Source: Acidobacteriota bacterium
Lineage (GTDB): Bacteria > Acidobacteriota > Thermoanaerobaculia > UBA5066
Assembly: GCA_008363385.1 (NCBI GenBank)
Contig: RHKY01000031.1
Coordinates: 6,522 to 70,521 of the forward strand
Direction: 5' to 3'
Length of the DNA: 64,000 nucleotides
Made by a program: the position numbers and the translations under genes. Positions 32,966 through 47,942 of the stretch are shown one piece after another; within the stretch, counting starts at the first letter, position 1; each line of letters starts with the position of its first letter. The notes beneath the pieces are model-generated. The model ran no database searches. It was given only the letters and a program-made list of their open reading frames with translations, and had not been told where the DNA came from.

Positions 32966-33319
32966 CTATGGCGACTCGGGTGTCGGCGCCGGCGGTGACA
33001 GTGGCTCGAGGACAGCCACCAGCGGCGGGATGTCCTCGCGGACCGTCTTCCACACGCCCTCGAGGTCGACGGAGTCGTACCCGTGGATCAGGATGTCGCG
33101 GGAGCCCGCGATCCGGCGCCAGGGAACCTCGGGGTGGGCTTCTCGGTATTCGGCAGAAAGTCGCTTCACGGCTTCCCCGAGCACGAGCAGCTGGTGCAGA
33201 ACCGCGGACTGGGTCTTCTCGTCCGCCTTGAACGAAGGCAGGTCGAGCTCACCCAGGAAGGCCGCAGCGTTGCGGGCCGCGCGAAGCGCGTCGAGGACGG
33301 ACGCTTCATCGCGCTGCAT
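32966..33319 (-). CDS. hepT: HepT-like HEPN toxin (DUF86)
   Basis: R-x4-HxY motif (RDILIHGY). Downstream partner of the MNT gene. Confidence 0.75.
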
Positions 33320-33665
33320 AGAGGGGCTCGGCCGTCGACAGGATCTCGTTCCGGCGGATCCAGTTGGGGCTGCTCTCCACGGCCGAACGGACGAGCAGGT
33401 CGACCGGCCGACCGAAGAGCTCGGAGAGCTCGTCACGCATCTGCCCTTGATCCAGGAGGGACCAGATCGTGTCGGCCTGAGGCGTGAGAAGGAGGTCCAC
33501 GTCGCTGTCGGGCCCGAAACTCGCGCGCAGGACGGATCCGAAGGCCGCGAGCTCGGCCACTCGCCACCTCTCGCAGAACGCTGCGAGCGTCGCCGGATCC
33601 ACCGAGATCGACAGGCTCATCGAGGGCATTCTATCGACGGCGCTCGCCGCGAGCCTTCGGGTCAT
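33306..33665 (-). CDS. mntA: MntA-like minimal nucleotidyltransferase antitoxin
   Basis: [20 protein letters not shown]-x(n)-DxD Pol-beta NTase motif. Overlaps hepT start. Confidence 0.75.
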
Positions 33666-33695
33666 CGACCCAGGGGACGCCGAGGAGGGCCGCCT

Positions 33696-33983
33696 TCAGG
33701 TGCCCGCCTCCGCCTCACGGACCATCTCGGGCGTGATCGCGGGTGCGTCCTCGGGGACGTCGAACACCGGAAAGCCGCCCCGTTCCCGGACCTCACCCGA
33801 GGCCGTTGGACCGCCTCGCGCGGGGGCGGCGAGGCCCTCGTCGGCCAGCGCCTGTTCGAACTCGGGATCGAGCTTGGCGCATTCCTCTCCCAGGCGTCGG
33901 TGCCTACGCCGCGATCTGCTCGTACGAGAACTCCGGGATCCCTCTCGATCCAGGCCTGGGAGGCTACGGCGGACCTTCTTCAT
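33696..33983 (-). CDS. Hypothetical small protein upstream of mntA/hepT
   Basis: 95-aa ORF with Arg-rich N-term. Only positional support. Confidence 0.25.
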   Translation of the reverse strand: MKKVRRSLPGLDREGSRSSRTSRSRRRHRRLGEECAKLDPEFEQALADEGLAAPARGGPTASGEVRERGGFPVFDVPEDAPAITPEMVREAEAGT

Positions 33984-34149
33984 CGTCTTCGCGTTCGACA
34001 GGATCCAGGGGGGCCAGAGCAGCCCCTCGTGCCGTGTTCGTCGGCGGCGATTCGCACCCGATCAGGCGACCCTGGCTTCCACGTACTCGGCCCGGGTGGC
34101 GGGCACGTCCTCGCTGCGTCTGGACGAGGCCGGCGCCGACGAGCCGAGG

Positions 34150-34542
34150 TCACCCTCGGCCGAGGTCCCCCGCCCGGCGCGCGGCCTTCCGCATCAAGGC
34201 GAGGTACGCCGGGAGGCGCGAGTAGACCTCTTCGGCCATCGCGGCCTTGTAGAGGTGGCTGGTCCTGTTGCGGTCCTCCAGCATCTGGAAGACGACGTCG
34301 TCGCCTTCGTCCAGGAGCCCGATCTGAAACGCAGCCCGGAAGGCCTCCCGTGGGGAAAAGAGCCGCAGGCCCTCCGCCTCCGAGCGCACCTTCAGAGTCT
34401 TCCAGAGAAGCTCGAACGAGAACTCGAAGCGCTGGATGGCTGCGTCCCGGACGATGTCGGACTTCGGCTCCCGCAGCGCCTCGTCGAGCCTGGCCAGCGC
34501 CGACTCGAGGTCCGACAGGAGCGATTCAAGCGGCGCGGTCAT
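34150..34542 (-). CDS. HI0074-type nucleotidyltransferase substrate-binding (HEPN) protein
   Basis: IQRFEFSFELLWKTLK...NRTSHLY pattern of NTase_sub_bind family. Follows cognate NTase. Confidence 0.7.
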   Translation of the reverse strand: MTAPLESLLSDLESALARLDEALREPKSDIVRDAAIQRFEFSFELLWKTLKVRSEAEGLRLFSPREAFRAAFQIGLLDEGDDVVFQMLEDRNRTSHLYKAAMAEEVYSRLPAYLALMRKAARRAGDLGRG

Positions 34543-34846
34543 GCAGGGGCACCACGTCTCGAAGGGCGATCTCGCGGAACTGCGCGTCGACCTGCCGGAA
34601 GTCGACGACGTCCACTCGGGCCAGGATCGGGGCCGCGTCGAGGAGGTCGCGGAGGTCCGCCATGTCCCGGGCGTCGAGCGGGCGGCCCGCGTCCACCCCG
34701 ATGTCGTAGTCCGAACGGACGTCGGCAGAGCCCCGGGCCCGCGACCCGAAGAGGAAGACGCGCAGGGGACGGTATCCGGAGAGCGGTCCGGCTACGGCAG
34801 CATCGACCGCCTCCAGCAGCACTTCGGGTAGATCGGTTCGCGTCAT
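34526..34846 (-). CDS. HI0073-type nucleotidyltransferase
   Basis: LFGSRARGSADVRSDYDIGV NTase motif. 106 aa. Confidence 0.75.
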   Translation of the reverse strand: MTRTDLPEVLLEAVDAAVAGPLSGYRPLRVFLFGSRARGSADVRSDYDIGVDAGRPLDARDMADLRDLLDAAPILARVDVVDFRQVDAQFREIALRDVVPLHDRAA

Positions 34847-34998
34847 CGCGTTGTCAGCTCACCCTGGACTTCGGTCAGGCCCGCGGCGCGGTCAGGCCGC
34901 GAGGCACGGGAGGCGGCTCAGGTTCCCAGCCGGCCTTCTCGAAGGCCTTCGCCGCGGATCTCCCGGAGATGTTGCCGAACCGCGACACGAATCCGCCT

Positions 34999-35214
34999 TC
35001 AGACGGCCACGACGATGGGCGTACCCTGCGAGTCGGAGCTGCGCGCCGACAGGGCCTTCTGATCTTCGGCCCAGAGCCAGGCCCGAATCGCCTCCTGGAT
35101 GTTCTCGAGCGCCTCCTTCTCGTCCTTCCCCTGGGAGACGCATCCCGGCAAGGCAGGACACTCCACCACGAACCAACCTTCCTCGTCCTTCTCCAGAGTC
35201 ACGTGAAACAACAC
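34999..35214 (-). CDS. HicB-like antitoxin (UPF0150 family)
   Basis: HVTLEKDEEGWFVVECPALPGCVSQGKDEKEALENIQEAI, the HicB N-domain. GTG start. Confidence 0.6.
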   Translation of the reverse strand: MLFHVTLEKDEEGWFVVECPALPGCVSQGKDEKEALENIQEAIRAWLWAEDQKALSARSSDSQGTPIVVAV

Positions 35215-35235
35215 GGTCCTGCCTCCGATCGAATC

Positions 35236-35331
35236 CTACGCTCCCACACCGAGGTCCCGGGTCTCGACGACGTCGCCGGCCCGGAACTCGATGTAGAGGG
35301 TGTCGGTCTCGACGAAGTACTCGACCTTCAC
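35236..35331 (-). pseudogene. Truncated DUF2283-like ORF (31 codons)
   Basis: My translation: VKVEYFVETDTLYIEFRAGDVVETRDLGVGA*, matching the N-half of DUF2283 proteins (MKIEYDKEADALYI...). GTG overlaps TGA of the HEPN gene (GTGA). Normal length is about 65-75 aa. Confidence 0.3.
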
Positions 35332-35750
35332 GGCTTGCCGCCTTCCAGCAGGCTCGTCGCCAGGTCCACGGCCTGTCGCGCGATCGAGACGGCGTCCTCG
35401 GCGTCATCGCGTCCGAACAACTCCCACGGCGTGCGCCAGGTCCCCTCGTCTCCGTAGTCGGATGCGACGTGCACGGCTGCTCCCAGCCGCTCGGCGAGGG
35501 TTGCCAGCTTGTCGAGGGCGCTCTGGCTCGCGGTGGCCGTCGATTCGGCAGCGAGCTGCCGCAGCAGGCTCCCGGGGGCATGAGTCCTTCCGACCGGTCC
35601 GGCATTGGCGAGGACCGCCTTCGCGGCGTTCTCCGTCGCGAGCTCGCTGGTGTCGACGCACGAACGCCAACGGCCCAGATCGATGTCCTGGGTGGCCTCG
35701 CCCAGGTACCCCTTCGCCAGCTTGATCCGGTAGGCGACTTCCTCGTTCAC
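35328..35750 (-). CDS. HEPN domain protein (partner of upstream MNT)
   Basis: C-terminal 140 aa of track ORF. HEPN-like helical protein. GTG 35750 overlaps TGA of MNT gene (GTGA). Confidence 0.6.
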   Translation of the reverse strand: MNEEVAYRIKLAKGYLGEATQDIDLGRWRSCVDTSELATENAAKAVLANAGPVGRTHAPGSLLRQLAAESTATASQSALDKLATLAERLGAAVHVASDYGDEGTWRTPWELFGRDDAEDAVSIARQAVDLATSLLEGGKP

Positions 35751-36223
35751 CGCTTCGCTCCATCCAGAGCAATGGGCTGCGCGTCCGCCGACCTCGGCCT
35801 GACCCTCCAGACTTCGCCGTCGGGCGTGCGGACCCGGAAGAGGCCGCGAGCGAACATCCTGGCCCGCAAGGCTTCGAGTCGCCGGCTGGCGTGCCCCTCG
35901 GGGTCGAAGAGGACGTCCCCGTCGAGGGCGATGTCGAAGAGGAGCGACGACTCGTGCCTCTCCAGCTCGTCCAGCGTCCACACGATCGGCGAGACCATCC
36001 CCCGCCACGACTCGGGCAGGCTCATGACCAGCTCCACGACCTCGCGCACTGGACGCTCATGCCGGGCCCGGATCACGACGAGAAGGTCCCAGTCGCTCCC
36101 AGGCTCGGCCTCGCTCCGCGCTCTCGAGCCGAACGAGACGATGGCGACGAGGCGGCCGGCGAGCGAGCGCCGGAACGCCGCGACCAGCTCCTCACGCGAC
36201 GGGCAGAGCGATTGGAGGTTCAC
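35747..36223 (-). CDS. Minimal nucleotidyltransferase (MNT) domain protein
   Basis: VSFGSRARSEAEPGSDWDLLVV Pol-beta NTase motif. 158 aa. Confidence 0.75.
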   Translation of the reverse strand: MNLQSLCPSREELVAAFRRSLAGRLVAIVSFGSRARSEAEPGSDWDLLVVIRARHERPVREVVELVMSLPESWRGMVSPIVWTLDELERHESSLLFDIALDGDVLFDPEGHASRRLEALRARMFARGLFRVRTPDGEVWRVRPRSADAQPIALDGAKR

Positions 36224-36275
36224 TGACTTCGGGGCCTTCTCTTCGCGAGCTCGGAAGGATGCCTGAGCGACTGTC

Positions 36276-36329
36276 TCACGGCGCCTGGACGAGGCCGGCG
36301 CCGACGTCGGTGGCCAGGAGCGGGAGGCG
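36276..36329. repeat. Direct repeat copy B: duplicated 3' end of the S8 protease gene (50/54 identical to 36885..36938)
   Basis: tcacggcgcctggacgaggccggcgccgacgtcggtGGCCaggagcgggaggcg. On the minus strand it encodes RLPLLATDVGAGLVQAP*, identical to the protease C-terminus, with only synonymous differences. Confidence 0.85.
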
Positions 36330-36331
36330 GC

Positions 36332-36562
36332 TCAATCCCGGAGGAAGTCCTCGGGGTCGATCCCGGCCTGGCGCAGGATGGCCCGCAGGGTACCTTCGGG
36401 AATATCGCCCGGGTGGTTGGGAAGGGTCGTGTACCTGTTTCTTGCGGGGTGATACCAGATCTCGTGGCTCCCGGCCGCTTGCCGATCGAACTCGAATCCG
36501 CGACGCCTCAGCCGGGCAGCGATCTCCCGATAGCGGAATCCGGCAAGCCTCCCCAGGATCAG
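36332..36562 (-). CDS. hicA: HicA-family mRNA interferase toxin
   Basis: Not in ORF track (no ATG/GTG/TTG). My translation: LGRLAGFRYREIAARLRRRGFEFDRQAAGSHEIWYHPARNRYTTLPNHPGDIPEGTLRAILRQAGIDPEDFLRD*. Conserved GSH...HP and GTL..IL.QAG motifs. Candidate CTG starts at 36562 (overlapping hicB TGA) or 36556 (GGAGG 6 nt upstream). Confidence 0.6.
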   Translation of the reverse strand: MILGRLAGFRYREIAARLRRRGFEFDRQAAGSHEIWYHPARNRYTTLPNHPGDIPEGTLRAILRQAGIDPEDFLRD

Positions 36563-36789
36563 CCTCCGACGACGAGCGTCAGATCCAGCGGCTCGCTGAT
36601 GGGCGGCGGTTCGTCGAGTGGCTCCCGACCGGCCTGCGCGTCGAGGAGCTTCCTCGCAACGTCGCGAGCGATCTCGAGGGTCTCCGCGATCGTCCGCCCC
36701 TGGGCGACCAGCCCCTGTACGTCTTCCGATGACGCCAGGAAGACGCCCTCGGGCAGCCGCTCCACGTGAACTCGGATGATCCGTTCCAA
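36559..36789 (-). CDS. hicB: HicB-family antitoxin
   Basis: VHVERLPEGVFLASSEDVQGLVAQGRTIAETLEIARDVARKLLDA. TTG start. Confidence 0.7.
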   Translation of the reverse strand: MERIIRVHVERLPEGVFLASSEDVQGLVAQGRTIAETLEIARDVARKLLDAQAGREPLDEPPPISEPLDLTLVVGG

Positions 36790-36884
36790 GGGACAGCTCC
36801 TTCAGCGTCCGGGCTGCCGGCCAGTCGGATCGGCCTCCCGGACATGCTTCCGGCTCATTCTATGGTGGGTCGCGCGCGGGCCCT

Positions 36885-38192
36885 TCACGGCGCCTGGACG
36901 AGGCCGGCGCCGACGTCGGTCGCGAGGAGCGGGAGGCGCTTGGCGGTCTGGGTGATCAGGGTCCAGATCTCGAGCGGCGTGGCGGTGGGGTTGGCCTCGG
37001 CGAGGAGGGCGGCGATGCCGGCGACGTGCGGCGTCGCCATGCTGGTGCCCGAGAGGCGCTGGTAGCGCTCGGGCATCGGGAAGCTGGAGTGGACGTCGAC
37101 GCCGGGGGCGGCGACGTCCACCTGGCCTCCCTTCGGGTCGAGGCCGCGGTTGGAGAAGGACGGGACGCGCAGCTTCGGGTCGAGGGCGCCGACGGCCATC
37201 ACCGAGGGGCAGTTGGCCGGGTGGCCGACGGGGGCGAAGTGCCCGGTTCGCCGCTCGCTCTCGTTGCCGGCGGCCGCGACGACGAGCGTCCCCTTCTTCA
37301 GGCCGCGCTTGGCGGCCGTCTCGAAGACCTTCGAGTACGGCTGGCCAAGCGAGACCTCGGCCCCGAGGGACATCGAGACGACGCGGCAGCCCTTCGAGAT
37401 GGCCCAGTTGACGCCCGCGAGGATCCAGCCGTCCGCCCCGCCGCCGTTGTCGTCGAGGACCTTCCCGGCGTGGATCCCGGCCTCGTGGGCGACGCCGTAC
37501 CGGGGCATGTGGTACGGCGCCTTCGGGCCGCACGCGGTGCCGATGCAGTGGGTGCCGTGGCCGTGGCCGTCCTGCGGCTTCGACCCCGGGACGAAGCTCT
37601 CGGCGACGATCTCGCGGTGCGGGTAGTCGGGGTGCTTGAGGTCGAAGCCGGTGTCGAGGACGGCGACCTTCACTCCCTTTCCCGAGAAGGCCGAGCGGTG
37701 GACGTTCGTGGCTTGCAGGCCCCAGGTGTACTCGCTCTCGCCGAGGGCGGGCGAGCCGAGGAGATCCAGGGCTCCGGGGGCGGCTTCTGCCGCGAGCTGG
37801 GCAACGAGGTCGTTGACGGCGTCGCGGTAGCCGCGGAGGTACTCGGGGAGGTGGGACGGGTCGTCGTGAAGGGCGCGGACGGCCCTCTCCGGCTCGACGG
37901 CGAGGAGGGGGCCCTGGGCCGAGGCCTTCTCGGCGAGCGAGCGGGCTTGGTCGGGGTCCGCGTCGACGAGGGCGACCCCCAGCTCGTGGAGGACGTAGGC
38001 GTCGGCCTCGCCCAGGTCGTCTTCCGTGGCCCGGCAGCCGGCGAAGTCGGCGCTGCACGCCGCCCGCAGGCCGGCGGCGTTCCTGAGGTCCGCGACGCCG
38101 AACCCGTCCAGCCCCTCGCGGAAGAGGACGAGGAGCCGGCCGGTGGTGGCGGGCGCCTTCGCGGGCGGGGGTTCGAGGCGAGGCTTTCTCAT
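36885..38192 (-). CDS. S8-family subtilisin-like serine peptidase
   Basis: Catalytic triad regions VAVLDTGFD (Asp), HGHGTHCIGT (His), GTSMATPHVAG (Ser). 435 aa. No obvious signal peptide. Last 54 nt (36885..36938) form direct-repeat copy A. Confidence 0.85.
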   Translation of the reverse strand: MRKPRLEPPPAKAPATTGRLLVLFREGLDGFGVADLRNAAGLRAACSADFAGCRATEDDLGEADAYVLHELGVALVDADPDQARSLAEKASAQGPLLAVEPERAVRALHDDPSHLPEYLRGYRDAVNDLVAQLAAEAAPGALDLLGSPALGESEYTWGLQATNVHRSAFSGKGVKVAVLDTGFDLKHPDYPHREIVAESFVPGSKPQDGHGHGTHCIGTACGPKAPYHMPRYGVAHEAGIHAGKVLDDNGGGADGWILAGVNWAISKGCRVVSMSLGAEVSLGQPYSKVFETAAKRGLKKGTLVVAAAGNESERRTGHFAPVGHPANCPSVMAVGALDPKLRVPSFSNRGLDPKGGQVDVAAPGVDVHSSFPMPERYQRLSGTSMATPHVAGIAALLAEANPTATPLEIWTLITQTAKRLPLLATDVGAGLVQAP

Positions 38193-38198
38193 GTTCTT

Positions 38199-38215
38199 CT
38201 AAAGGGACACTTTAG
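38199..38215. promoter_or_regulatory. AT-rich palindrome CTAAAG-GGACA-CTTTAG 7-24 bp upstream of protease ATG, followed by a GC hairpin (38224..38246)
   Basis: 30-bp AT-rich island in 70%+ GC context. Inverted repeat read directly. Function inferred. Confidence 0.3.
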
Positions 38216-38442
38216 GATTCTCACGCCCCGGCGGTCAGCCGGGGCGTCTCGTCTCGGAGGGACCGAGTTCCCGGGGCCACTCCGGCCGCGTAGGCCTGCC
38301 CGCAGCGCGACGCACGTCGTTGGCCATCCGTTGGAGGACGAGGAGGATGCCGAGCTTCCGCTCTATGGGGAGTCGGGCCAGCTCCAGCCGCCTCTGGCGC
38401 TTCGCCTCGAAGATGGCGATCTCGGGTCCGCTCACGACGACG

Positions 38443-38961
38443 TCAGGTCCCACGGACACCTCCTGACCACGCGGCCCAACGCTCGGCGAGCCCGAACCTC
38501 TCGAGAATCGAAGCGAGCCGGCGCGCATCCACCTCCGCTTCCTCGAGCAGCTGTTGCGCCCGGACACGGTCCTTCGACCGCCCCGTCTGAACAGCAATGG
38601 CGAGAAGGTACTCCACCCGGACGACCCTCGTCGGAGTCCCTCCAACCGTGTGCGGCTGCGCGTTGCGCGCGGCCTCCAGCACCAGGGAGTTGTACGCCGG
38701 AAGGAGCTGCACCGGGATGCCATGAAGAACGACGTGCTCGCCCTGCGGGACTCCGCCGCGACTCTTCAGGAATGCCAGCTGCGGCTCCATCGTGACGACG
38801 GCAGCGTTCGCCTGGCTCTCGGATAGAACGACGAAGACGTCGAGGTCGTGCGTCGCGACCGGTTCAGCGTAGAAGAGCGCGGCCACAGCGCCCCCGATCG
38901 CGTACGTCTCGACGAGACCCGCCTCGACGAGCTCGTTCAGGACTTCGAGAACGGCTTCCAT
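38443..38961 (-). CDS. Pol-beta-superfamily nucleotidyltransferase-like protein (AbiEii/DUF2204-like)
   Basis: From M38 of track ORF: YAIGGAVAALFYAEPVATHDLDVFVV (G[GS]-x(n)-DxD). 172 aa. Paralog of the next gene. Confidence 0.5.
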   Translation of the reverse strand: MEAVLEVLNELVEAGLVETYAIGGAVAALFYAEPVATHDLDVFVVLSESQANAAVVTMEPQLAFLKSRGGVPQGEHVVLHGIPVQLLPAYNSLVLEAARNAQPHTVGGTPTRVVRVEYLLAIAVQTGRSKDRVRAQQLLEEAEVDARRLASILERFGLAERWAAWSGGVRGT

Positions 38962-38971
38962 CGTGATTCGT

Positions 38972-39538
38972 TCAGGCTCGCTGCTCGCCCGGCGGGAGGA
39001 TCTTCTCGAGGAGGTGAGTGACGCCGGCGCTGGCTGCCTCGCGCCGGATGTAGGCGAGGTCGATGGCCTCACCGCAGCCAGCGAGGACGGAGGCCGCGTC
39101 TCGGAGCTGGCGCTCGGATCCGGAGAGGGCGGCCCACTTGAGCTTCGAGACGATGGAGCCCTCCGGGGAGATGACGTAGACGTCGACGTCGAACAGGCGC
39201 GCCCCCCTCCGCCTCGCGAGCTCGCCGCGCTCGAAAGGCCGATCGGGGCACACGATCAAGTCCGCCTTCCATCCGGACTCGAGGTGGATGACATTGAGCA
39301 TCCCCCGGGTCCTCAGGGCCTCGGCGGCCTCGTCCCGGCTGACGTAGAAGCCCTCCTTCAGCTCGTCCAGCAGACGGCTCAGCTGCGCTGGCCGCGGGTC
39401 GAAGACGACGTCGACGTCCTGGGTGGCTCGTGGCTCGCCGTAGAAGGCGGAGGCGGTGGAGCCAGTGATCATCCAGGGTATCCCCGCGGCATTCAGGGCA
39501 GCCGCGAGCCGGACGAGGATGTCGCGTGGAGAGGTCAT
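38972..39538 (-). CDS. Pol-beta-superfamily nucleotidyltransferase-like protein (AbiEii-like), paralog
   Basis: From M73 of track ORF: ITGSTASAFYGEPRATQDVDVVFDP. ...SIVSKLKWAALSGSERQLRDAASVL resembles the AbiEii C-region. ATG overlaps stop of upstream small ORF. Confidence 0.5.
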   Translation of the reverse strand: MTSPRDILVRLAAALNAAGIPWMITGSTASAFYGEPRATQDVDVVFDPRPAQLSRLLDELKEGFYVSRDEAAEALRTRGMLNVIHLESGWKADLIVCPDRPFERGELARRRGARLFDVDVYVISPEGSIVSKLKWAALSGSERQLRDAASVLAGCGEAIDLAYIRREAASAGVTHLLEKILPPGEQRA

Positions 39539-39813
39539 CGGCTCGAGCCCGCGGCGCCTGTGAAGCGATCCGCCAGTGCGTCGCCGTAGATGCGCCGGAA
39601 GAGCTCTGTGCGAAGCCGGAAGTCGTCGTACTCCGGGTGACGCATCCGGATGCCCGCGAGGACGGCCTCGCGGGCGAGCTCCGACGCCGCGAAGGCTGCC
39701 TCGACACGCCCCTCCGGGCCGAGCCGGGCGTGGATCTCCCGGACCTTTCTCCAAGCCGCCTCCGAAGTGTCGAGGGGGCGAGAGAAGGGATGGGGATGTT
39801 CTGGCGAGGTCAC
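39535..39813 (-). CDS. Hypothetical 92-aa protein, first gene of NTase-paralog operon
   Basis: ORF with balanced composition. Positional coupling to downstream NTase gene. Confidence 0.35.
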   Translation of the reverse strand: MTSPEHPHPFSRPLDTSEAAWRKVREIHARLGPEGRVEAAFAASELAREAVLAGIRMRHPEYDDFRLRTELFRRIYGDALADRFTGAAGSSR

Positions 39814-39871
39814 CGGTAGATGGAGGCTCGATGGCCTACGCGGAACCTGTAGGTACCGAGCGCCGGCTGAG

Positions 39872-40123: not shown

Positions 40124-40174
40124 GCGCGTTCTATCCGGGGTCCGCTCCGCTCCCGCGTTTACGGCTCTTCCGGA

Positions 40175-40704: not shown

Positions 40705-40734
40705 GACCTGATTATGGACTAGAATTCAGACCAC

Positions 40735-42669
40735 TCAGTCCAGCGGGATCTCGGACTTCCAGTCGCCCTTCTCGTGGTAGGGGGGCTGGCCTTCCTTGTC
40801 GAGGACGAAGGTCTCGAGGACCAGGGCGTCCATGTTCGTCCGCATGAAGCAGCGGTAGCTGTCCTCGGGGGTGCAGACGATCGGCTCGCCGCGGACGTTG
40901 AAGCTGGTGTTGACGACGACCGGGCAGCCGGTCTTCTGCCGGAAGGCCTCGAGGATCTCCCAGTAGAGGGGGTTCGTCTCCTTGCGGACGGTCTGGATCC
41001 GGGCGGAGTAGTCGACGTGCGTGACGGCCGGGATCTCGGACCGGACGACGTTGAGCTTGTCGATCCCCCAGAGGGCCTCTTCCTGGGACGTCATCTTCCG
41101 CTGCCGCTTCTTCGCCACGTCGGCCACGAGGAGCATGTACGGGCTGTCGACGGCGAGGTCGAACCACTCGGCGGCGTGCTCGCGCAGGACCGACGGCGCG
41201 AACGGCCGGAACCCTTCGCGGAACTTGATCTTGACGTTCATCGTGGCCTGCATCCTCGGCAAGCGGGGGTCGCCCAGGATGCTGCGCGAGCCGAGCGCTC
41301 GCGGGCCGAACTCCATCCGCCCCTGGTGGAGGCCGACGACCTTCTCCTGCGTCAGGAGTTCGGCGACGGCGCCGGGGAGAGCTTCGCGCTCGACGCGGCG
41401 GTACGGGAGCTTCCGCGCGTCGAGGAAGGCCCGGATCTCCTCCTCGGTGTGGCGCGGGCCGAGGTAGGCCCCCTTCATCCCGTCGGCGTAGGGCGCGGGC
41501 TGGCCGTTCCCCTTCGCGGGTGCGACCCACGTGCCGGCCTTCTCGGGGCTCGTCCGCGGGTTGCCGAGGTAACGGTGCCAGAGCGAGAGGGCGATGCCGA
41601 CGGCTCCCCCGGCGTCCCCGGCCGCGGGCTGGATCCAGACATTCTCGAACGGCCCCTCGCGCAGGATCCGCCCGTTGCCGACGCAGTTGAGGGCGACGCC
41701 GCCGGCCATGCAGAGGTTCGTCAGGCCCGTCTCCCTGTGCGCGAAGCGGGCCATCTTCAGCATCGACTCCTCGGTGACCTCCTGGATCGACCGGGCGAGG
41801 TCGAGGTCCTTCTGTGTCATCTTCGTCTCGGGCTCGCGCGCCGGGCCGCCGAAGAGCTTCTCGAAGGCGCGGTTGGTCATCCGCAGGCCGTCGGCGTATC
41901 CGAAGTAGTCCTGGTTGAGCCGGATCGAGCCGTCGTCGCGGACCTCGACGAGCTTCTCCCGGATGAGGCCGACGTACTTCGGCTCGCCGTAGGGGGCAAG
42001 GCCCATGACCTTGTACTCGCCGGAGTTGACCTTGAAGCCCGTGTAGTACGTGAAGGCGCTGTAGAGGAGCCCGAGGCTGTCGGGGAAGCGGAGCTCGCGG
42101 AGGAGCGTCAGCTCGGTGCCGCGGCCGTAGCCGAGGGAGCTGGTCGCCCACTCGCCGACGCCGTCCATCGTGAGGATGGCGGCCTCCTCGAACGGCGAGG
42201 GGAAGAACGCGCTCGACGCGTGGCTCTCATGGTGGTCGCCGAAGAGGACCTTGCACGGCAGCGCCGCGCCCCGCTTCTTCGCAGCCTTCTCGTCGGTCTC
42301 GCCCGCGACCTTAGCCAGCTCGGTCCGGAGGACGTCCGGCAGCCAGAGCTTCTCCTTCATCCAGAGCGGCATCGCCTGGACGAACGAGGCGAAGCCCCGA
42401 GGGGCGTAATCGGTGTAGGTCTCCAGCAACCGGTCGAACTTGGTGAGCGGCTTGTCATAGAAGCCGACGAGGTCGACCTGCTCGGGGGTGATCCCGGCCT
42501 CCTTCAGGCACCAGGCGACGGCGTGGCGCGGGAAGCGGTGGTCGTGCTTCTTCCGCGAGAAGCGCTCTTCCTGCGCCGCGGCGAGGATCTCCCCGTCGAC
42601 GACGAGACACGCCGCCGAGTCGTGGTAGTAGGCCGAGATGCCGAGGATTCTGGTCAGGTTGCTGCTCAG
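40735..42669 (-). CDS. Carbamoyltransferase (NodU/CmcH/SxtI family)
   Basis: Track ORF (564 aa from TTG 42429) lacks the conserved N-domain. In-frame upstream translation gives SSNLTRILGISAYYHDSAACLVVDGEILAAAQEERFSRKKHDHRFP... with no ATG/GTG/TTG. CTG 42669..42667 overlaps TGA of the SxtK-like gene. Confidence 0.75.
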   Translation of the reverse strand: MSSNLTRILGISAYYHDSAACLVVDGEILAAAQEERFSRKKHDHRFPRHAVAWCLKEAGITPEQVDLVGFYDKPLTKFDRLLETYTDYAPRGFASFVQAMPLWMKEKLWLPDVLRTELAKVAGETDEKAAKKRGAALPCKVLFGDHHESHASSAFFPSPFEEAAILTMDGVGEWATSSLGYGRGTELTLLRELRFPDSLGLLYSAFTYYTGFKVNSGEYKVMGLAPYGEPKYVGLIREKLVEVRDDGSIRLNQDYFGYADGLRMTNRAFEKLFGGPAREPETKMTQKDLDLARSIQEVTEESMLKMARFAHRETGLTNLCMAGGVALNCVGNGRILREGPFENVWIQPAAGDAGGAVGIALSLWHRYLGNPRTSPEKAGTWVAPAKGNGQPAPYADGMKGAYLGPRHTEEEIRAFLDARKLPYRRVEREALPGAVAELLTQEKVVGLHQGRMEFGPRALGSRSILGDPRLPRMQATMNVKIKFREGFRPFAPSVLREHAAEWFDLAVDSPYMLLVADVAKKRQRKMTSQEEALWGIDKLNVVRSEIPAVTHVDYSARIQTVRKETNPLYWEILEAFRQKTGCPVVVNTSFNVRGEPIVCTPEDSYRCFMRTNMDALVLETFVLDKEGQPPYHEKGDWKSEIPLD

Positions 42670-42824
42670 AACAGCGTGTAGATGAACGGCGCGACGGCCG
42701 AGCCCTGCGAGACGACGAGGAGGAGGCCGACGAGGAGCAGGACGATGACGATCGGGGCGAGCCAGTACTTCTTGTTGTGCTTCAGGAACTCGCCGAACTC
42801 GGAGACGACTTGCAGCTTGCTCAT
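42666..42824 (-). CDS. DUF5989/SxtK-like small membrane protein
   Basis: 52 aa MSKLQVVSEFGEFLKHNKKYWLAPIVIVLLLVGLLLVVSQGSAVAPFIYTLF. Family characteristically adjacent to carbamoyltransferases. Confidence 0.55.
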   Translation of the reverse strand: MSKLQVVSEFGEFLKHNKKYWLAPIVIVLLLVGLLLVVSQGSAVAPFIYTLF

Positions 42825-42832
42825 CGCGGGCC

Positions 42833-43249
42833 TCAGTAGAGCTTCTCGTAGTGCTTCGGGTCGAGGTGGCGCGCCGGGTAGGGGTGCCAGTAGCTGTCGG
42901 CGGGGGCCGAGCGGCGGCGGAGCGGGTCCGAGCCGGTCAGGCGGCGAAAGATCCCGATCGGCGTGACGACGAGGTAGAAGACGACGAAGAGGACGACGCG
43001 GGTCATCACCCAGCCGAGCCCCTCGGCGAGCGTCATCCAGCCGCGGTGAGGGAGGGCGAGGGCCTTCGGCGCGGCCGCGCCGAGGAGGAAGAGGAGCGCG
43101 CCGATGCCGAGGAGGACAGGCGCCGCGACGGGGAACCGTCCGCGGAAGAGCCACCACCCGCCGATCGCGGCGAGGATCCCGCCCACCAGGAGCCCGAACG
43201 AGCGCAGCTCGCGGACGGAGGCGGGGGGGTGAGGCTGGGCTGGGCTCAT
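42833..43249 (-). CDS. SxtJ-like membrane protein
   Basis: 138 aa, 3-4 TM helices. Position and size match SxtJ partners of SxtI/SxtK-like genes. Confidence 0.5.
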   Translation of the reverse strand: MSPAQPHPPASVRELRSFGLLVGGILAAIGGWWLFRGRFPVAAPVLLGIGALLFLLGAAAPKALALPHRGWMTLAEGLGWVMTRVVLFVVFYLVVTPIGIFRRLTGSDPLRRRSAPADSYWHPYPARHLDPKHYEKLY

Positions 43250-43265
43250 CGAGCTCCCTGCAGAT

Positions 43266-43297: not shown

Positions 43298-43302
43298 TGA
43301 GG

Positions 43303-44460
43303 TTGATGCTTCGACGGTCCCTGGCTCTCCCGTCTCGCCCCGAGACGACCTTCTCCCTCTGGGGACCCCGCCAGACCGGGAAGAGCACGCTCCTGCGCGC
43401 CACCTACCCGGACGCGACGTGGATCGACCTGCTGAAGTCCGACGAGATGGCGCGCTACCTGTCCCGGCCCGCGCTGCTTCGCGAGGAGCTGGAGGCCAGG
43501 CCCGCCACGGGAGTCGTCGTCGTCGACGAGGTGCAGAAGGTGCCGGCGCTCCTCGACGAGATCCACTGGCTGATCGAGAACCGCAGACGTGTCTTCGCGC
43601 TCTGCGGGTCGAGCGCGCGCAAGGTCCGGCGGTCCCACGCGAACCTGCTCGGAGGGCGCGCCGTCCGCTACGAGCTGACCGGCCTCGTGGCGCCGGAGCT
43701 GGGAACGGCGTTCGACCTGGACCGGATGCTGAACCACGGAACGCTTCCCCGGCACTACCTCTCCGACGAACCGCGGCCGCTCCTGCGGGCTTACGTGGGG
43801 GACTACCTGAAGGAGGAGATCGCGGCCGAAGGGATCGTCCGGAGGATCCCAGCCTTCTCGGGCTTCCTGGCGGCGGCCGCGCTCGCGGACGGCGAGATGG
43901 TCAGCTACGCGACGATCGCGCGGGACTGCGGCGTCTCGGCGCCCACGGTGAACGGGTACTTCGAGATCCTCGTCGACACGCTGCTCGGCCGGTTCGTCCC
44001 CTCGTTCACGCGCCGGCCGAAGCGCCGCGTGATCCAGGCCCCGAAGTTCTACTTCGCCGACGTGGGCGTCGTGAACGTCCTGGCCCGCCGCGGCCGGGTC
44101 GAGCGCGGGTCCGAGCTGTACGGGAAGGCGTTCGAGAGCTGGGTGCTGCACGAGCTGTGGGCCGCGTCCCGCTACCGGGAGCTCTACTTCGAGATCTCGT
44201 ACTGGAGGGTGGCCAGCGGGTTCGAGGTGGACTTCGTCCTGGGAGACATGGAGGCCGCCGTCGAGGCGAAGGCGGTCGAGCGCGTCACGTCCGATCACCT
44301 GAAGGGGCTTCGTCAGCTCGCCGTCGACCACCCGGAAACGCGGCAACGGTGGCTCGTCTGCCTGGAGCCCCGGGCCCGGAGGACCGAGGACGGGATCGAC
44401 ATCCTGCCGTACCGCGAGTTCGTCCGGCGCATCTGGAACGAGGAGCTGCCTCGCGGCTGA
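43303..44460 (+). CDS. AAA-family ATPase with DUF4143 C-terminal domain
   Basis: Walker A GPRQTGKST, Walker B VVVVDEVQ. C-terminal region typical of AAA_14+DUF4143 proteins. ATG at 43306 is the likely start. Confidence 0.75.
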   Translation: MMLRRSLALPSRPETTFSLWGPRQTGKSTLLRATYPDATWIDLLKSDEMARYLSRPALLREELEARPATGVVVVDEVQKVPALLDEIHWLIENRRRVFALCGSSARKVRRSHANLLGGRAVRYELTGLVAPELGTAFDLDRMLNHGTLPRHYLSDEPRPLLRAYVGDYLKEEIAAEGIVRRIPAFSGFLAAAALADGEMVSYATIARDCGVSAPTVNGYFEILVDTLLGRFVPSFTRRPKRRVIQAPKFYFADVGVVNVLARRGRVERGSELYGKAFESWVLHELWAASRYRELYFEISYWRVASGFEVDFVLGDMEAAVEAKAVERVTSDHLKGLRQLAVDHPETRQRWLVCLEPRARRTEDGIDILPYREFVRRIWNEELPRG

Positions 44461-44567
44461 ACCCCGGCAGCCTTCGAACGAGGTCTTCCCTGCTGACCGG
44501 GGAGAGCCGCGTTGAGGTAGTCGAGGAGCATCGCCGAAGAGATCCTATCTCACCGTGGAATCGATAG

Positions 44568-45548
44568 TCAGGCGGACTGCGCGCCCGCGGGCCTCGCCCC
44601 GAGCCACCAGTCGAGCGTCCTGGCGAGGCCGTCCTTCATCGTCGTGGTCGCGCGCCAGCCGAAGCGCTCGGCGGCGCGGGTGGTGTCGAGCTTCCTCCGC
44701 GGCTGGCCGTTGGGCTGGCTCGTGTCCCAGACGATCCCGCCCTCGAAGCCGACGAGGGCGCGGATCGTCTCGGCGAGGTCCTTGATCGAGATCTCCTCGC
44801 CGGAGCCGAGGTTGACGGGGTCCTCGCCGTCGTACCGCTCGGCCGCAGCGAGGATCCCCTCGGCGGCGTCCTCGACGTAGAGGAACTCGCGCGTGGAGCT
44901 GCCGTCGCCCCAGAGGGTGACGCTCGTCTCGCCGCGGTCCTTGGCCTCGAGGAACTTCCGGATCATGGCGGGGATGACGTGGCTGGTGACGAGGTCGAAG
45001 TTGTCGCGCGGGCCGTAGAGGTTCACCGGGAGGAGGAAGACGCCCGGGAAGCCGAACTCCTGCCGGTAGCCCTGGAGCATGACGAGGAGCGACTTCTTGG
45101 CGATGCCGTACGGGGCGTTCGTCTCCTCGGGGTAGCCGTTCCAGAGGTCCTCCTCGCGGAACGGGACGGGCGTGAACTTGGGGTAGGCGCAGATGGTCCC
45201 GAGCTGGACGAACTTCTCGAAGCCGGGAAGGCGCCCCTCCTCGATCCCCGCGCGGCAGGCCTCGATCAGGTGGATCCCCATCAGGGCGTTGTCGCGGAAG
45301 AAGCTGCCGGGGTGGAGGCGGTTGGCGCCGATGCCGCCGACCTTGGCCGCGGCGTGGATGACGACGTGCGGCCGCGACCAGGCCAGGCACCTCTCGACGT
45401 CCTCGACCCGCGTCAGGTCGAACTGCTCGATCCGCGGGACGAAGACCTCGGTCCCCGCGAGGGCCTGGAGCCGCTCGACGAGGTGGCTGCCGAGGAAACC
45501 GGCACCACCGGTCACGAGGACGCGCTTGCCGGCGAGGGTGATCGTCAC
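44568..45548 (-). CDS. fcl: GDP-L-fucose synthase (GDP-4-keto-6-deoxy-D-mannose 3,5-epimerase/4-reductase)
   Basis: [19 protein letters not shown] catalytic pair. [19 protein letters not shown] signature of Fcl. Confidence 0.85.
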
Positions 45549-45597
45549 TGCTGTCTTTTCGTCGCGATGGCGCTACGGCCGGATCCAGACGCGTCGT

Positions 45598-45990
45598 TCA
45601 GGCCGCAGCAACCAGAGGGATCGAGTAGAGCCCGAACGACGGGTCCGCCGTCATGACGGTCAGCTTCTCGACGAGCGCCTGCGCGACGAGAAGCCGGTCG
45701 AACGGGTCCCGGTGGTGCATAGGAAGCGACGCGACCTGCAGGGCATGCGAGTGAGCGATCGGAAGCGGCTCGAGCGCCTGGGCCGCCATCCGGGAGGGCA
45801 CGAACGTGGAGGGTGGCTCCGGGAGGGTCAGCTTGCCCAGGGCGTACTTGATCGCGATCTCCCACGCGGATGCGGCCGAGAGGTAGACGGTGTTCCGGCG
45901 CGAGACCAGGAGCCTGCGCGCTTCCGGCGACAGTCGTTCCGGCTCCGCGAGGCTCCAGAGCCAGCAGTGCGTGTCGACGAGGAGCTTCAC
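45598..45990 (-). CDS. vapC: VapC PIN-domain toxin
   Basis: MKLLVDTHCWLW...(D) N-term, PFDRLLVAQALVE..LTVMTAD acidic residues. ATGA overlap with antitoxin. Confidence 0.8.
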   Translation of the reverse strand: MKLLVDTHCWLWSLAEPERLSPEARRLLVSRRNTVYLSAASAWEIAIKYALGKLTLPEPPSTFVPSRMAAQALEPLPIAHSHALQVASLPMHHRDPFDRLLVAQALVEKLTVMTADPSFGLYSIPLVAAA

Positions 45991-46220
45991 CCTTCGAAGT
46001 CCCGGAGGACGTCCTCGGGAAGCGGAGCGTCGAAGTCGTCGGCGATCCGGATCTTCCCGGCGTCGAGGCCCAGCGGACGCCGCGGGCTCGACGCGTCGAA
46101 CGGGACCAGCCGGGCCACGGGCTTCCCGGCGCGAGCGATGACGATCTCCTCGCCGGCCTCGACGCGGACGAGAAGCTGCGAGAGGCGGGTCTTCGCGTCG
46201 TGAACGTTGACCTCGGTCAT
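45987..46220 (-). CDS. vapB: Phd/YefM-type (VapB) antitoxin
   Basis: MTEVNVHDAKTRLSQLLVRVEAGEEIVIARAGKPVARLVP. Confidence 0.7.
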   Translation of the reverse strand: MTEVNVHDAKTRLSQLLVRVEAGEEIVIARAGKPVARLVPFDASSPRRPLGLDAGKIRIADDFDAPLPEDVLRDFEG

Positions 46221-46241
46221 GGCAGTAGACTAAGTCCTCGA

Positions 46242-46670
46242 CTAAGTTAGATCAAGGGATTCGACCACCGTCGCCGCGAAGCGCTCGAGGTCGCCGATGT
46301 TCTTCTCGACGATGGCGCGGACGACGGCGGGGTCGAGGGTGGTGTAGTCGTGGACCGCGACGTTCCGGAAACCGACCACGGAGCGCATGGCGACGAGGAG
46401 TTCGCCGGACAGGGCGCCGCGGTTCGCGAGGATCTCGAAGGCGTTCCGCGCGTCGCGCGGGACCTCCCAGCCGTTCTCGGCGATCAGGTGGTTCGCCAGG
46501 TCGATGCAGGCCTCGGCCGCCCGCTGGAGGTTGAGGACGGCGAGGTCCTGCCGCATCCACTCCTTGTCGGGCTGCGGCACGAGGGCCGGCAGGTCGCGGA
46601 TCGTCCCGGTGGCCTTCCGGATGGTGGAGGCCTTCGCCAGGACGACGTCGCGGTCGGCCTTCAACGGCAC
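46242..46670 (-). CDS. hepT: HepT-like HEPN toxin (DUF86)
   Basis: R-x4-HxY motif RNVAVHDY. 142 aa. Confidence 0.75.
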   Translation of the reverse strand: MPLKADRDVVLAKASTIRKATGTIRDLPALVPQPDKEWMRQDLAVLNLQRAAEACIDLANHLIAENGWEVPRDARNAFEILANRGALSGELLVAMRSVVGFRNVAVHDYTTLDPAVVRAIVEKNIGDLERFAATVVESLDLT

Positions 46671-47074
46671 GTGCGGGCCCAGGCGGCCATCGCCTGCTCC
46701 ACGGGGCGGCGCTGGATCTTCACGTCGAAGTAGAGGGCGGGCGTGTACATCCGGAACTCGGCGAGCGCCCGGGCGTCCTCCACGAGGACCGGCACGCCGT
46801 GCTCGAGGACCTGCATCCTCACGATCGCGTCTCCGCGGCGGAGGTCGAGGAGGTCGACGGTGCGGTGGAGGTGCCGCTCGAGGCGCTGCGAGATCTCGAG
46901 CCGCTCGTCCGGCGAGAGGGCGCGATCGGCCCAGAGGGCGACGTCGACGTCGCTCTCGGGGCCGAGCCTCCCCGCCGCGGCCGAGCCGTGGACGTACGCG
47001 AAGCGGACCCCGACCGGGGCGTCCTGGAGGACGTCGCGGACGGCGGCGGCGATGTCTGGGTCGAGGGCGGTCAA
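46661..47074 (-). CDS. mntA: MntA-like nucleotidyltransferase antitoxin
   Basis: YVHGSAAAGRLGPESDVDVAL NTase motif. Confidence 0.75.
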   Translation of the reverse strand: MTALDPDIAAAVRDVLQDAPVGVRFAYVHGSAAAGRLGPESDVDVALWADRALSPDERLEISQRLERHLHRTVDLLDLRRGDAIVRMQVLEHGVPVLVEDARALAEFRMYTPALYFDVKIQRRPVEQAMAAWARTCR

Positions 47075-47081
47075 GGACGCG

Positions 47082-47330
47082 TCAGGAGACCGGGGAGCCC
47101 GGGGGGCCGATCGAGACGTCGCGCGCGAGGTCGACGGCCTCGACGCCGTCGAGGTCCGTGAGGCGGCCGACGACGTCCCCCGGCGCGCGGCCGGTGATCG
47201 TGCCGACCGACTCGAGGACGCCGTCCACCGTCATCCCGGCAGCCCGCAGGCGGCCGGCGACCTCGTGGAGGCGATCGCCGTGGAGCTCATCGACGGTGAC
47301 GACGACGGGGACGAGGCTGGTCGCGGTCAT
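47082..47330 (-). CDS. Hypothetical 82-aa protein (first gene of mntA-hepT operon)
   Basis: Strong RBS GGAGGTGA 4 nt before ATG. Its RBS plus first 29 codons are duplicated 602 bp upstream. Confidence 0.4.
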   Translation of the reverse strand: MTATSLVPVVVTVDELHGDRLHEVAGRLRAAGMTVDGVLESVGTITGRAPGDVVGRLTDLDGVEAVDLARDVSIGPPGSPVS

Positions 47331-47340
47331 CGCTCACCTC
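47242..47340. repeat. 99-bp perfect direct repeat, copy 1 (identical to 47844..47942)
   Basis: gcccgcaggcggccggcgacctcgtggaggcgatcgccgtggagctcatcgacggtgacgacgacggggacgaggctggtcgcggtcatcgctcacctc read at both loci. Confidence 0.9.
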
Positions 47341-47488
47341 CTTTTTCGTCTCCGGCTCCAGCGCGGCGGCGGAGCAAGAAGTCCCGGCACGCCACTGCTC
47401 GCCCGTGCAGCCCGTCTCCATGGGCGAGTCGGGCGACGGCCAGGTCCTCCTCGGCGAAGGCGAGCCAGGTCTCAGGCAGCCCGCTCAT
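47327..47488 (-). pseudogene. Truncated HEPN-domain gene fragment (about 54 codons) ending at the repeat boundary
   Basis: MSGLPETWLAFAEEDLAVARLAHGDGLHGRAVA resembles a HEPN N-terminus. Frame terminates inside repeat copy 1. Overlaps MNT stop. Confidence 0.35.
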
Positions 47489-47840
47489 ACAGCACGCGGC
47501 CGCTCCCGAGGATCTCGTCCCGCACGAAGGGCCGCTCGGCGACGAGTCGCTCCAGCTCGGCCGGGGTGTAGGCCAGGATGTCCGTGGCGACGACCGGGCG
47601 GAGGATCCGGCGAAGCTCGGCCAGGCGCCGGAAGAACGGTGCGTCCGTATCCAGGACGACGACGAGGTCGATGTCCGAGTCCTCTTGGGGGGCTCCTCGC
47701 GCAACGGATCCGAAGACCAGGACCGTCCGGACCCGGTGGTCCCGGGACAGGATCCCCACGTAGCGAGCCAGCTCCGCGCGAAGGAGCGCGAGGCGATCGC
47801 TCGGATCAGCCGAGTCCGGGGCGGAAAGCGAAGTCAACAT
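47472..47840 (-). CDS. Minimal nucleotidyltransferase (MNT) domain protein
   Basis: VLVFGSVARGAPQEDSDIDLVVV motif. ATG overlaps stop of a 32-codon leader ORF created by repeat copy 2. Confidence 0.75.
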   Translation of the reverse strand: MLTSLSAPDSADPSDRLALLRAELARYVGILSRDHRVRTVLVFGSVARGAPQEDSDIDLVVVLDTDAPFFRRLAELRRILRPVVATDILAYTPAELERLVAERPFVRDEILGSGRVLYERAA

Positions 47841-47843
47841 GAT

Positions 47844-47942
47844 GCCCGCAGGCGGCCGGCGACCTCGTGGAGGCGATCGCCGTGGAGCTCATCGACGGTG
47901 ACGACGACGGGGACGAGGCTGGTCGCGGTCATCGCTCACCTC
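47844..47942. repeat. 99-bp perfect direct repeat, copy 2
   Basis: Identical to 47242..47340. Carries RBS+ATG+29 codons of the 82-aa gene, here terminating after ...LRASC*. Confidence 0.9.

Follow-up and report, generated by a model that had tools for sequence, protein, structure and literature searches.

Does the TA-dense island at window positions 32966-47942 (~15 kb; TA, toxin-antitoxin) hold a three-gene module of a type not described before? The window is the whole 64,000-nt stretch of Acidobacteriota DNA analysed here (contig RHKY01000031.1). Its G+C content is ~70%, and its proteins have exact or near-exact copies in metagenome-assembled genomes labelled Acidobacteria and Thermoanaerobaculia. 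An earlier examination of the letters alone (the sequence-only reading) had singled out a 92-aa protein and two orphan, AbiEii-like, paralogous nucleotidyltransferases (NTases), lying ~250 bp upstream of an S8 subtilase, as an undescribed module matching no TA architecture that could be named. We consider it rather likely that the unit consists of two bicistronic modules that lie side by side but are independent of each other, both from the MenT/AbiEii (DUF1814) superfamily of nucleotidyltransferase toxins and called pair A and pair B below, and that the S8 subtilase is not a component of either. The genes concerned are the following:

39535-39813, minus strand: 92-aa small protein (family A3), pair A
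38972-39538, minus strand: NTase1, 188 aa, MenT1-like minimal nucleotidyltransferase, pair A
38443-38961, minus strand: NTase2, 172 aa, DUF2204-like, first gene of pair B
38235-38453, minus strand: 72-aa basic protein (family A5), pair B
36885-38192, minus strand: S8 subtilase, 435 aa (Pfam Peptidase_S8, E 4e-54)

In the DNA, the stop codon of the 92-aa open reading frame (ORF) overlaps the NTase1 start by 4 nt (ATGA), and NTase2 starts 10 nt past the NTase1 stop. The supposed gap of ~250 bp before the subtilase holds the conserved 72-aa gene, which has a GTG start five nt after AGGAGG and an 11-nt overlap with the NTase2 stop, leaving 42 nt to the S8 gene. The same series of genes (92, 188, 172 and 72 aa, then the 435-aa S8) was called by gene callers in L009-L011, where labels L001-L116 denote the related contigs or loci compared with the window. 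Neither NTase is an orphan, since each sits in its own two-gene module, NTase1 behind the 92-aa gene and NTase2 ahead of the 72-aa gene. A 10-bp G+C hairpin (38223-38247; -34.7 kcal/mol, z -4.57 versus shuffles) lies ahead of the subtilase start and extends across the stop codon that ends the 72-aa gene. It has no U-tract and hence went unreported by the terminator scan; a scan of 36200-40800 for promoter and terminator consensus sequences gave no match.

The independence of the two pairs is apparent from a survey of NTase2 in one genome per species, which gave more than 530 relatives, with partners counted in the best 80 loci. Matches to the A1 or A3 family occur within 4 kb in at most three of these 80 loci, two of them being weak partial matches. 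This indicates that pairs A and B are independent modules, adjacent here by chance. What had been framed as a single three-gene module tied to the subtilase is thus two modules, each recurring alone elsewhere. The description of the NTases as AbiEii-like paralogs holds only in a weak sense: the AbiEii score of NTase1 is below threshold, and the mutual relation is seen at profile level only (hhalign between the two families, probability 76%, E 2e-5). BLASTP aligns no more than the 23-residue NTase motif, and recent paralogy was rejected on this ground. A relation between the 92-aa and 72-aa proteins was likewise rejected (hhalign probability 0.7%).

Pair A probably belongs to the MenAT1 type, as a distant member. 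MenT1 of Mycobacterium tuberculosis appends cytidine monophosphates (CMPs) to tRNA 3'-CCA ends, and its 68-aa partner MenA1 binds across two MenT1 protomers and causes auto-phosphorylation at T39 (PMC10435456, PMC11375011; see also PMC7450476 for the mechanism). The motif III lysine of MenT1 is K137 and the motif IV aspartate D152 (PMC10435456). NTase1 belongs to a widespread family of "hypothetical proteins" of ~185-190 aa, in which G26, S27, D41 and K132 are invariant and at least 90% of the members share T39, D43 and D147. The best PDB match of the family profile was MenT1 (8an4, E 2.7e-7), over the N-terminal 78 positions, and the HMMER alignment places GS...PRaTqDvD of the family on PRFTRDVD of MenT1, including T39 and D41. 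With the AlphaFold2 (AF2) model of NTase1 (pLDDT, predicted local distance difference test, 94.9), the top five Foldseek matches in PDB were all MenT1 (8an5/8an4/8rr5), at E 7e-8 and template modelling (TM) scores of 0.61-0.68 over 177-196 columns, at a sequence identity of about 18-21%. Furthermore, K132 and D147 are 15 residues apart, the same spacing as K137 and D152 in MenT1. This putative equivalence of motifs III and IV rests on fold and spacing, because the C-terminal half of the family has no sequence match.

MenT motifs I and II (hG[GS]x9-13Dh[DE]h, in which the Ser/Thr that accepts the phosphate precedes the first Asp by two residues, T39/D41 in MenT1) were found in both NTase families, as G26, S27, T39, D41 and D43 in NTase1 and as G23, G24, T37, D39 and D41 in NTase2. 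Both proteins also have the bilobed MenT-type fold according to AF2 and Foldseek.

The partner points in the same direction. The 92-aa protein has 47 detectable homologs, most of which carry a precomputed assignment to Pfam PF18993 (Rv0078B, i.e., MenA1). In our own scan of the family, 6 of 25 members matched PF18993 at E<=0.01 (best E 2.4e-4), and the copy in L102 has an unmarked PF18993 hit. NTase1 loci were examined in close relatives (L001-L011, L105) and for 45%-identical homologs from Planctomycetota and other groups (L100-L104). An A3-family ORF lies directly upstream of NTase1, with the 4-nt overlap, in every locus examined (L001-L005, L007-L011, L100-L105), including those of the closest non-identical homolog (79%, L001-L003). 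An architecture can thus be named for pair A, which maps onto MenA1/MenT1 (Rv0078B/Rv0078A); for pair B the earlier statement stands, as it is uncharacterised.

By homology, we infer that pair A would act like MenAT1 of M. tuberculosis, both in toxicity and in its tRNA target, with the 92-aa protein as candidate MenA1-like antitoxin and NTase1 as candidate toxin. In E. coli, MenT1 is not toxic. Neutralisation would involve sequestration together with induced auto-phosphorylation of the conserved Thr, and the predicted phospho-acceptor is T39, two residues ahead of the first catalytic Asp. The ATGA overlap would provide translational coupling between the two genes.

Pair B appears to be another module built on the MenT1 fold, in which the gene order is reversed and the partner protein is unrelated and undescribed. 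The NTase2 family (~165 aa) is distinct from that of NTase1, and in it G23, G24, T37, D39, D41, R128, K130 and D131 are invariant or near-invariant. NTase2 matches Pfam DUF2204 (PF09970) at 20.8 bits against a cut-off of 20.3, over only positions 3-45 of the 181 in the profile, and 16 of 36 family members match it at E<=0.01. Neither the sequence nor the profile of NTase2 has a relative in PDB. The AF2 model (pLDDT 91.5) again gave MenT1 as each of the top five Foldseek matches in PDB, with E 2e-8, TM 0.63-0.68 and up to 199 aligned columns.

The 72-aa family comprises 100 representative clusters at E<=1e-3, mostly of 55-90 aa, with the signature ARLPIEEK...LQR.AN.IR...GR..P.W and with K33 and W59 invariant. 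These proteins are very basic: the median pI is 11.1, versus 5.1 for the NTase, and the protein in the window has a pI of 11.5. The family has no match in Pfam, PDB or PADLOC, and no Pfam, NCBIfam or PADLOC model exists for this partner. The pairing is nearly strict, as an A5-family ORF lies directly downstream of NTase2 on the same strand in 79 of the 80 best loci, the sole exception being a contig that ends 76 nt after the NTase. In 78 of these 80 the offset between the two genes is -18 to +40 nt. The loci come from at least a dozen phyla, e.g., Acidobacteriota, Verrucomicrobiota, Nitrospirota, Deltaproteobacteria, Elusimicrobia, Planctomycetota, Armatimonadota and others, and the partner is also present in L012-L017, though not called as a gene there. 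A natural fusion was found in P0376, a 237-aa protein of the representative library, which joins an NTase2-family domain (6-169, E 3e-43) to a 72-aa-family domain (181-237, E 1e-22). Plasmid copies are rare and all annotated as hypothetical. A phage origin was rejected, since IMG/VR holds one locus per NTase family. We found no literature on pair B, nor any that was relevant on DUF2204, DUF6036 or NetFlax combined with nucleotidyltransferase. At L004 5022-5537 the NTase2 homolog is split across frames, probably as a frameshifted pseudogene, and its 72-aa partner and the adjacent pair A look intact.

In pair B the predicted roles are toxin for NTase2 and antitoxin for the 72-aa protein. Taken alone, pair B has in our view an even chance of representing a new MenT-like TA family, toxin-first and very widespread, whose antitoxin belongs to a new class.

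Several results count against the assignment of these pairs. For NTase1, the Pfam AbiEii model (PF08843) reaches only 19.6 bits against a cut-off of 22.5, and the C-terminal half of its family does not find MenT1 in PDB by sequence. The window's own 92-aa protein has no PF18993 match, and the profile of its family finds nothing at E<=10 against the MenA1 chain in PDB. NTase2 has no AbiEii match in Pfam, and its chemistry may differ, with no lysine aligned to K132: hhalign sets I122 of NTase2 opposite K132 of NTase1, and the invariant R128, K130 and D131 lie one helix further on. Its 72-aa partner has no known relative, and a protein so extremely basic might just as well bind nucleic acids or be a toxin. 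Among NTase1-family members, 14 of 37 match AbiEii at E<=0.01, other matches being DUF6036, NTP_transf_5, ANT(2'') and DUF2204.

The alternative that survives best, unlikely as we hold it to be, is that pair B is not a TA system at all, NTase2 modifying a small molecule or serving a housekeeping role and the 72-aa protein being a regulator or nucleic-acid-binding cofactor. The minimal NTases ANT(2'')-Ia, LnuA and TM1012 are also significant fold matches of NTase2 (TM 0.50-0.54), a motif III lysine is not evident, many copies stand singly among housekeeping genes (e.g., between thiamine and histidine genes in L012-L017), and the family hardly occurs on viral contigs and only rarely on plasmids. 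MenT1 is, however, clearly the best fold match, with E 2e-8 versus 2e-5 or weaker for ANT. Moreover, the tight overlapping two-gene architecture, the patchy insertion of single loci among unrelated genes, the complementary charges and the location in a TA island beside a MenAT1-like pair are all typical of TA systems.

We find it improbable that the roles within pair B are reversed, as in HEPN/MNT systems, so that NTase2 would be an antitoxin neutralising a small basic toxin by binding or nucleotidylylation. Antitoxin-first is the usual order of TA genes, several pairs in the same island are MNT-first, and an acidic NTase next to a very basic partner fits the pattern of acidic antitoxin and basic toxin. 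On the other hand, a possible AMPylation site is lacking in the 72-aa family, in which no Tyr, Ser or Thr is invariant, the invariant residues being the Lys and Trp named above, and the fold of NTase2 favours the toxin MenT1 far over MntA (7ae9: E 0.07, TM 0.37). Toxin-first operons are also well known, e.g., higBA, hicAB and mqsRA.

The S8 subtilase has a subtilisin catalytic domain with an intact D/H/S triad in its sequence and a ~158-aa N-terminal extension. Its best PDB matches are subtilisin E/BPN' (E ~1e-44, residues 159-420), and PADLOC gives a generic "subtilase" match (E 9e-26) and a weak match to IetS. The order of the genes differs among the relatives as follows:

Window, L009 and L105: A3-NTase1-NTase2-A5-S8
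L004: S8-HicB-like-NTase2 (frameshifted)-A5-A3-NTase1
L005: S8-A3-NTase1
L021: S8 ... NTase2-A5 ... A3
L106: S8-epimerase-A3-NTase1

In L004, L005 and L021 the S8 gene stands directly after holA, which suggests that S8 is a resident of the junction where the cassettes accumulate. We therefore regard it as probably a neighbour of the modules and not a part of them; functional coupling is the less economical reading. S8 is found within 4 kb in only 1 of the 80 NTase2 loci, and it is missing from the NTase1 loci L001-L003 (within 6 kb) and L100-L104. An S8 that is 48% identical, in L107, has no modules nearby.

Very doubtful, in our view, is the idea that the small proteins, both NTases and S8 form one multi-component module specific to this lineage (Thermoanaerobaculia/Holophagae), in which a cytoplasmic S8 would degrade the MenA1-like and 72-aa partners on a trigger and so free the tRNA-modifying NTases. 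Such a protease-gated NTase toxin system would, if true, be one not described before. In at least five Acidobacteriota arrangements that differ in gene order (window, L009/L105, L004, L005, L021, L106), S8 does lie within ~3 kb of the modules and shares their strand, and proximity that is kept despite rearrangement can also indicate functional linkage, which speaks against mere neighbourhood. In addition, the 72-aa gene and S8 are only 42 nt apart, and the protease could be cytoplasmic, as its sequence has no obvious signal peptide. All co-occurrences of S8 and modules, however, come from one clade and one chromosomal junction with S8 anchored beside holA. The closest non-identical NTase1 homolog and 79 of the 80 NTase2 loci lack an S8 nearby, the S8 of L107 stands without modules, a strong hairpin separates the 72-aa gene from S8, and other genes intervene between S8 and the modules in L004 and L106.

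Two independent modules beside a resident protease is the reading that we keep, and it fits the island around them. This lies between a polysaccharide locus on the left and holA on the right. The left flank holds GT2, GT1 and GT4 glycosyltransferases, two asparagine-synthase-like amidotransferases, a Wzt-like ABC ATPase, epimerases and a UDP-glucose/GDP-mannose dehydrogenase; the right flank holds holA, PTPS, glucokinase, G6PD and transaldolase. Pfam scans of the window ORFs gave the inventory of genes and domains, which in the island includes, besides the genes above:

33306-33665 and 32966-33319, minus strand: MNT and HepT pair (Pfam)
34526-34846 and 34150-34542, minus strand: HI0073-type MNT and HI0074-type NTase_sub_bind HEPN pair (Pfam)
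34999-35214, minus strand: orphan HicB-like gene, 71 aa
35239-35330, minus strand: DUF2283 fragment, profile positions 1-26 of 49 (Pfam)
35747-36223 and 35328-35750, minus strand: MNT and HEPN (PF05168) pair (Pfam); the MNT matches PADLOC PDC-S09
36559-36789, minus strand: HicB-like/DUF1902 gene, 76 aa (DUF1902 E 1.3e-3)
36332-36556, minus strand: HicA toxin, directly after the HicB-like gene (PF07927, E 2e-19)
39872-40123, minus strand: 83-aa ORF between ParE and pair A, no Pfam, NCBIfam or PADLOC match
40175-40453 and 40450-40704, minus strand: ParE/RelE toxin and YefM/Phd antitoxin (Pfam)
40735-43249, minus strand: carbamoyltransferase, DUF5989 and SxtJ (glycan/secondary-metabolite-type)
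43303-44460, plus strand: DUF4143/AAA_14 ATPase (Pfam; PADLOC candidate PDC-S01, E 7e-50)
44568-45548, minus strand: NAD-dependent epimerase (GDP-fucose-synthase-like), a glycan gene
45598-46220, minus strand: VapB (Phd-type) and VapC (PIN) pair (Pfam)
46661-47074 and 46242-46670, minus strand: MNT and HepT pair (Pfam)
47082-47330, minus strand: 82-aa ORF, no family match
47330-47470, minus strand: HEPN-like stub, no Pfam match, recognised by eye
47472-47840, minus strand: orphan MNT beside the HEPN stub (Pfam)

The island thus contains about ten complete TA pairs plus fragments, with glycan genes interleaved. Homology to the island's own TA proteins revealed only one more pair in the other 49 kb of the window, a VapBC at 52343-52932, which shows that the concentration of TA genes in the island is real. 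This second VapBC (minus strand, PIN plus Phd-type) lies among housekeeping genes and is paralogous to the pair at 45598-46220. The inventory given by the sequence-only reading was largely right, including the HI0073/HI0074-type, relE/yefM and vapBC pairs, the orphan MNT, the DUF2283 fragment, the DUF4143 ATPase and the subtilase. Its three HepT/MntA pairs become two, the HEPN of the third being PF05168 instead of HepT/DUF86. The hicAB pair is present, as a HicB-like gene followed by a HicA that lacks a canonical start, with a separate orphan HicB, and the truncated HEPN is visible by eye but not to Pfam. The placement between glycan locus and housekeeping genes is correct for the flanks, but glycan genes occur inside the island as well.

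The HicA ORF has no ATG, GTG or TTG start, with only CTG and ATC codons after a GGAGG that overlaps the hicB stop, and L105 repeats this arrangement. Either a non-canonical start keeps translation of the toxin low, or the gene is in decay. The 83-aa ORF has homologs at the same place in L105 and adjoining an MNT/HEPN pair in L004, and its C-terminus resembles, by eye, the tails of Phd/YefM-type antitoxins. The 82-aa ORF recurs in L106 directly upstream of S8, and a homolog of the DUF4143 ATPase also adjoins pair A in L001.

The view of the island as an integration hotspot is supported by cassette differences among relatives, by an indel in L111 and by direct repeats that bracket two cassettes. 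The interval from holA to S8 spans about 10 kb of TA and glycan genes in the window, and the two genes are adjacent in L004, L005 and L021, which have few or different cassettes. L111, with flanks 98.7-99.7% identical to the window, lacks the VapBC pair: 734 nt of the window (45543-46276) stand against 76 nt in L111 (2360-2435). The segment with MNT2, HepT2 and orf82 (the 82-aa ORF) is only 91.9% identical between L111 and the window, and the drop between near-identical flanks indicates mosaic recombination.

The boundary repeats that had been suspected are real. Perfect 99-nt direct repeats with a period of 602 nt (47242-47340 and 47844-47942) are copies of the 82-aa ORF's 5' end and bracket the orphan MNT and the HEPN stub, which is cut off at the repeat. 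As 99 is a common assembly k-mer size, an artefact was considered; it was rejected because the independent assembly L111 has both copies with 1-2 differences. Among the short-read contigs L112-L116, several break at the second copy. L111 (596-656) and L112 (1715-1775) have ~61 extra nt directly beside the upstream copy, on its side towards holA, that the window (47942) does not have. The second repeat family derives from the last 54 nt of S8, stop included (36885-36938). A second copy, 96% identical, follows directly after hicA (36276-36329), and a third, of 32 nt, follows the HI0074-type gene (34110-34141), so that the copies bracket the 0.55-kb hicBA cassette and a 2.1-kb block of several TA genes. 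This duplication is limited to the window lineage, including L105 with both copies and the hicBA cassette; L004, L005, L009 and L021 have a single copy.

When tested for attC-like or terminator structure, the boundary repeats did not fold above shuffles (z +0.9 to -1.8). No tRNA genes that could serve as integration targets were found in the window, and no integrase or recombinase among its scanned ORFs. The cassettes may have come about either by Campbell-type integration through homology or by duplication followed by deletion. These observations support the view that the island is a variable segment prone to recombination, located where holA and the polysaccharide locus meet, in which small TA cassettes accumulate.

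A similar setting was found in L001-L003 (5747-8586), from another Thermoanaerobaculia genome and a different polysaccharide locus, where Wzm/Wzt ABC-transporter genes on one side and glycosyltransferases on the other enclose pair A, a DUF4143 ATPase, VapBC and a PemK pair. This indicates that TA clusters within glycan loci recur in this lineage. Two features of the window's polysaccharide genes were also observed. The UDP-glucose/GDP-mannose dehydrogenase (30906-33053, minus strand) is interrupted at its catalytic cysteine motif (…GLGGH|CLAGTES…FVHN|CIPLDP…) by a mini-intein of ~240 aa (residues 331-549 match Pfam Intein_splicing), and its ortholog in L005, of 438 aa, has no intein. A 1039-aa ORF (22130-25246, minus strand) is an asparagine-synthase-like amidotransferase (GATase plus Asn_synthase) fused to a GT1-family glycosyltransferase; the second Asn-synthase-like gene stands alone at 9650-11572.

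The main value of the locus lies in the unannotated, very widespread pair B and in the clean cassette differences between strains. With the unit re-parsed, the experimentally characterised MenAT1 type, known from M. tuberculosis and a few homologs, reaches into Acidobacteriota, Planctomycetota and further phyla. A second, unnamed module also comes to light, a MenT1-fold NTase with a conserved basic partner of 55-90 aa, all copies of which we saw annotated as "hypothetical". If pair B is a TA system, it would bring a new antitoxin class and a new gene order to the MenT family and, because the Thr is conserved, would test how general antitoxin-induced Thr auto-phosphorylation is. The flanking repeats and strain indels make it possible to study, in a concrete case, the movement of TA cassettes within polysaccharide loci.

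Among known systems, MenAT1 is the closest. Pair A shares with it a protein of ~70-90 aa directly upstream of a minimal NTase of ~190 aa, MenT1 as best match of both profile and fold, the aligned GS...T-x-D-x-D with its phospho-acceptor Thr, a Lys and an Asp 15 residues apart in the C-terminal helix region, and PF18993 in many homologs of the partner. It differs in its low identity, in a sub-threshold AbiEii score and in a 92-aa protein that misses both PF18993 and the MenA1 chain. Pair B agrees with MenAT1 in fold, size and N-terminal motif, but has the opposite gene order, a very basic partner unrelated to MenA1 and no evident motif III lysine.

With AbiE, the pairs share the NTase superfamily and, for NTase1, weak AbiEii matches (19.6 bits in Pfam, E 0.012 in PADLOC). 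The COG5340/AbiEi winged-helix antitoxin is missing, however, and the NTases have 172-188 aa versus about 250-300 aa. Canonical AbiEi/AbiEii was rejected for this reason, together with the sub-threshold scores and the lack of a PADLOC system. Both a known family for the unit and a subtilase unlinked elsewhere, which would have argued against an undescribed module, were thus largely found, though the match is not to canonical AbiEi/AbiEii. On the island as a whole, the PADLOC-DB v2 models gave only single-protein candidates (the DUF4143 ATPase as PDC-S01, MNTs as PDC-S09 and S8 as a generic subtilase) and no complete defence system. They did not match the 92-aa protein, NTase2, the 72-aa protein, HepT, the HI0074-type HEPN, PIN, ParE or HicA.

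The type VII HEPN/MNT systems (HepT/MntA, HI0073/HI0074), with four such pairs or remnants in the same island, likewise consist of a minimal polymerase-beta-type NTase in a tight two-gene operon. There, the NTase is the antitoxin and its partner a HEPN RNase, whereas the partners in pairs A and B are non-HEPN proteins of 72-92 aa and the NTase folds fit MenT1 far better than MntA.

Taken as a whole, the island is an ordinary zone of TA accretion, though a very dense one, within a variable polysaccharide locus. It resembles TA-rich or defence-island regions and chromosomal integrons in its dense TA cassettes, decayed fragments, presence or absence of cassettes between strains and some boundary repeats. 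It differs from integrons in that no integrase or attC-like folded sites were found, its repeats being the ends of resident genes (S8 3', orf82 5'), and from both integrons and defence islands in that its cassettes are interleaved with polysaccharide genes.

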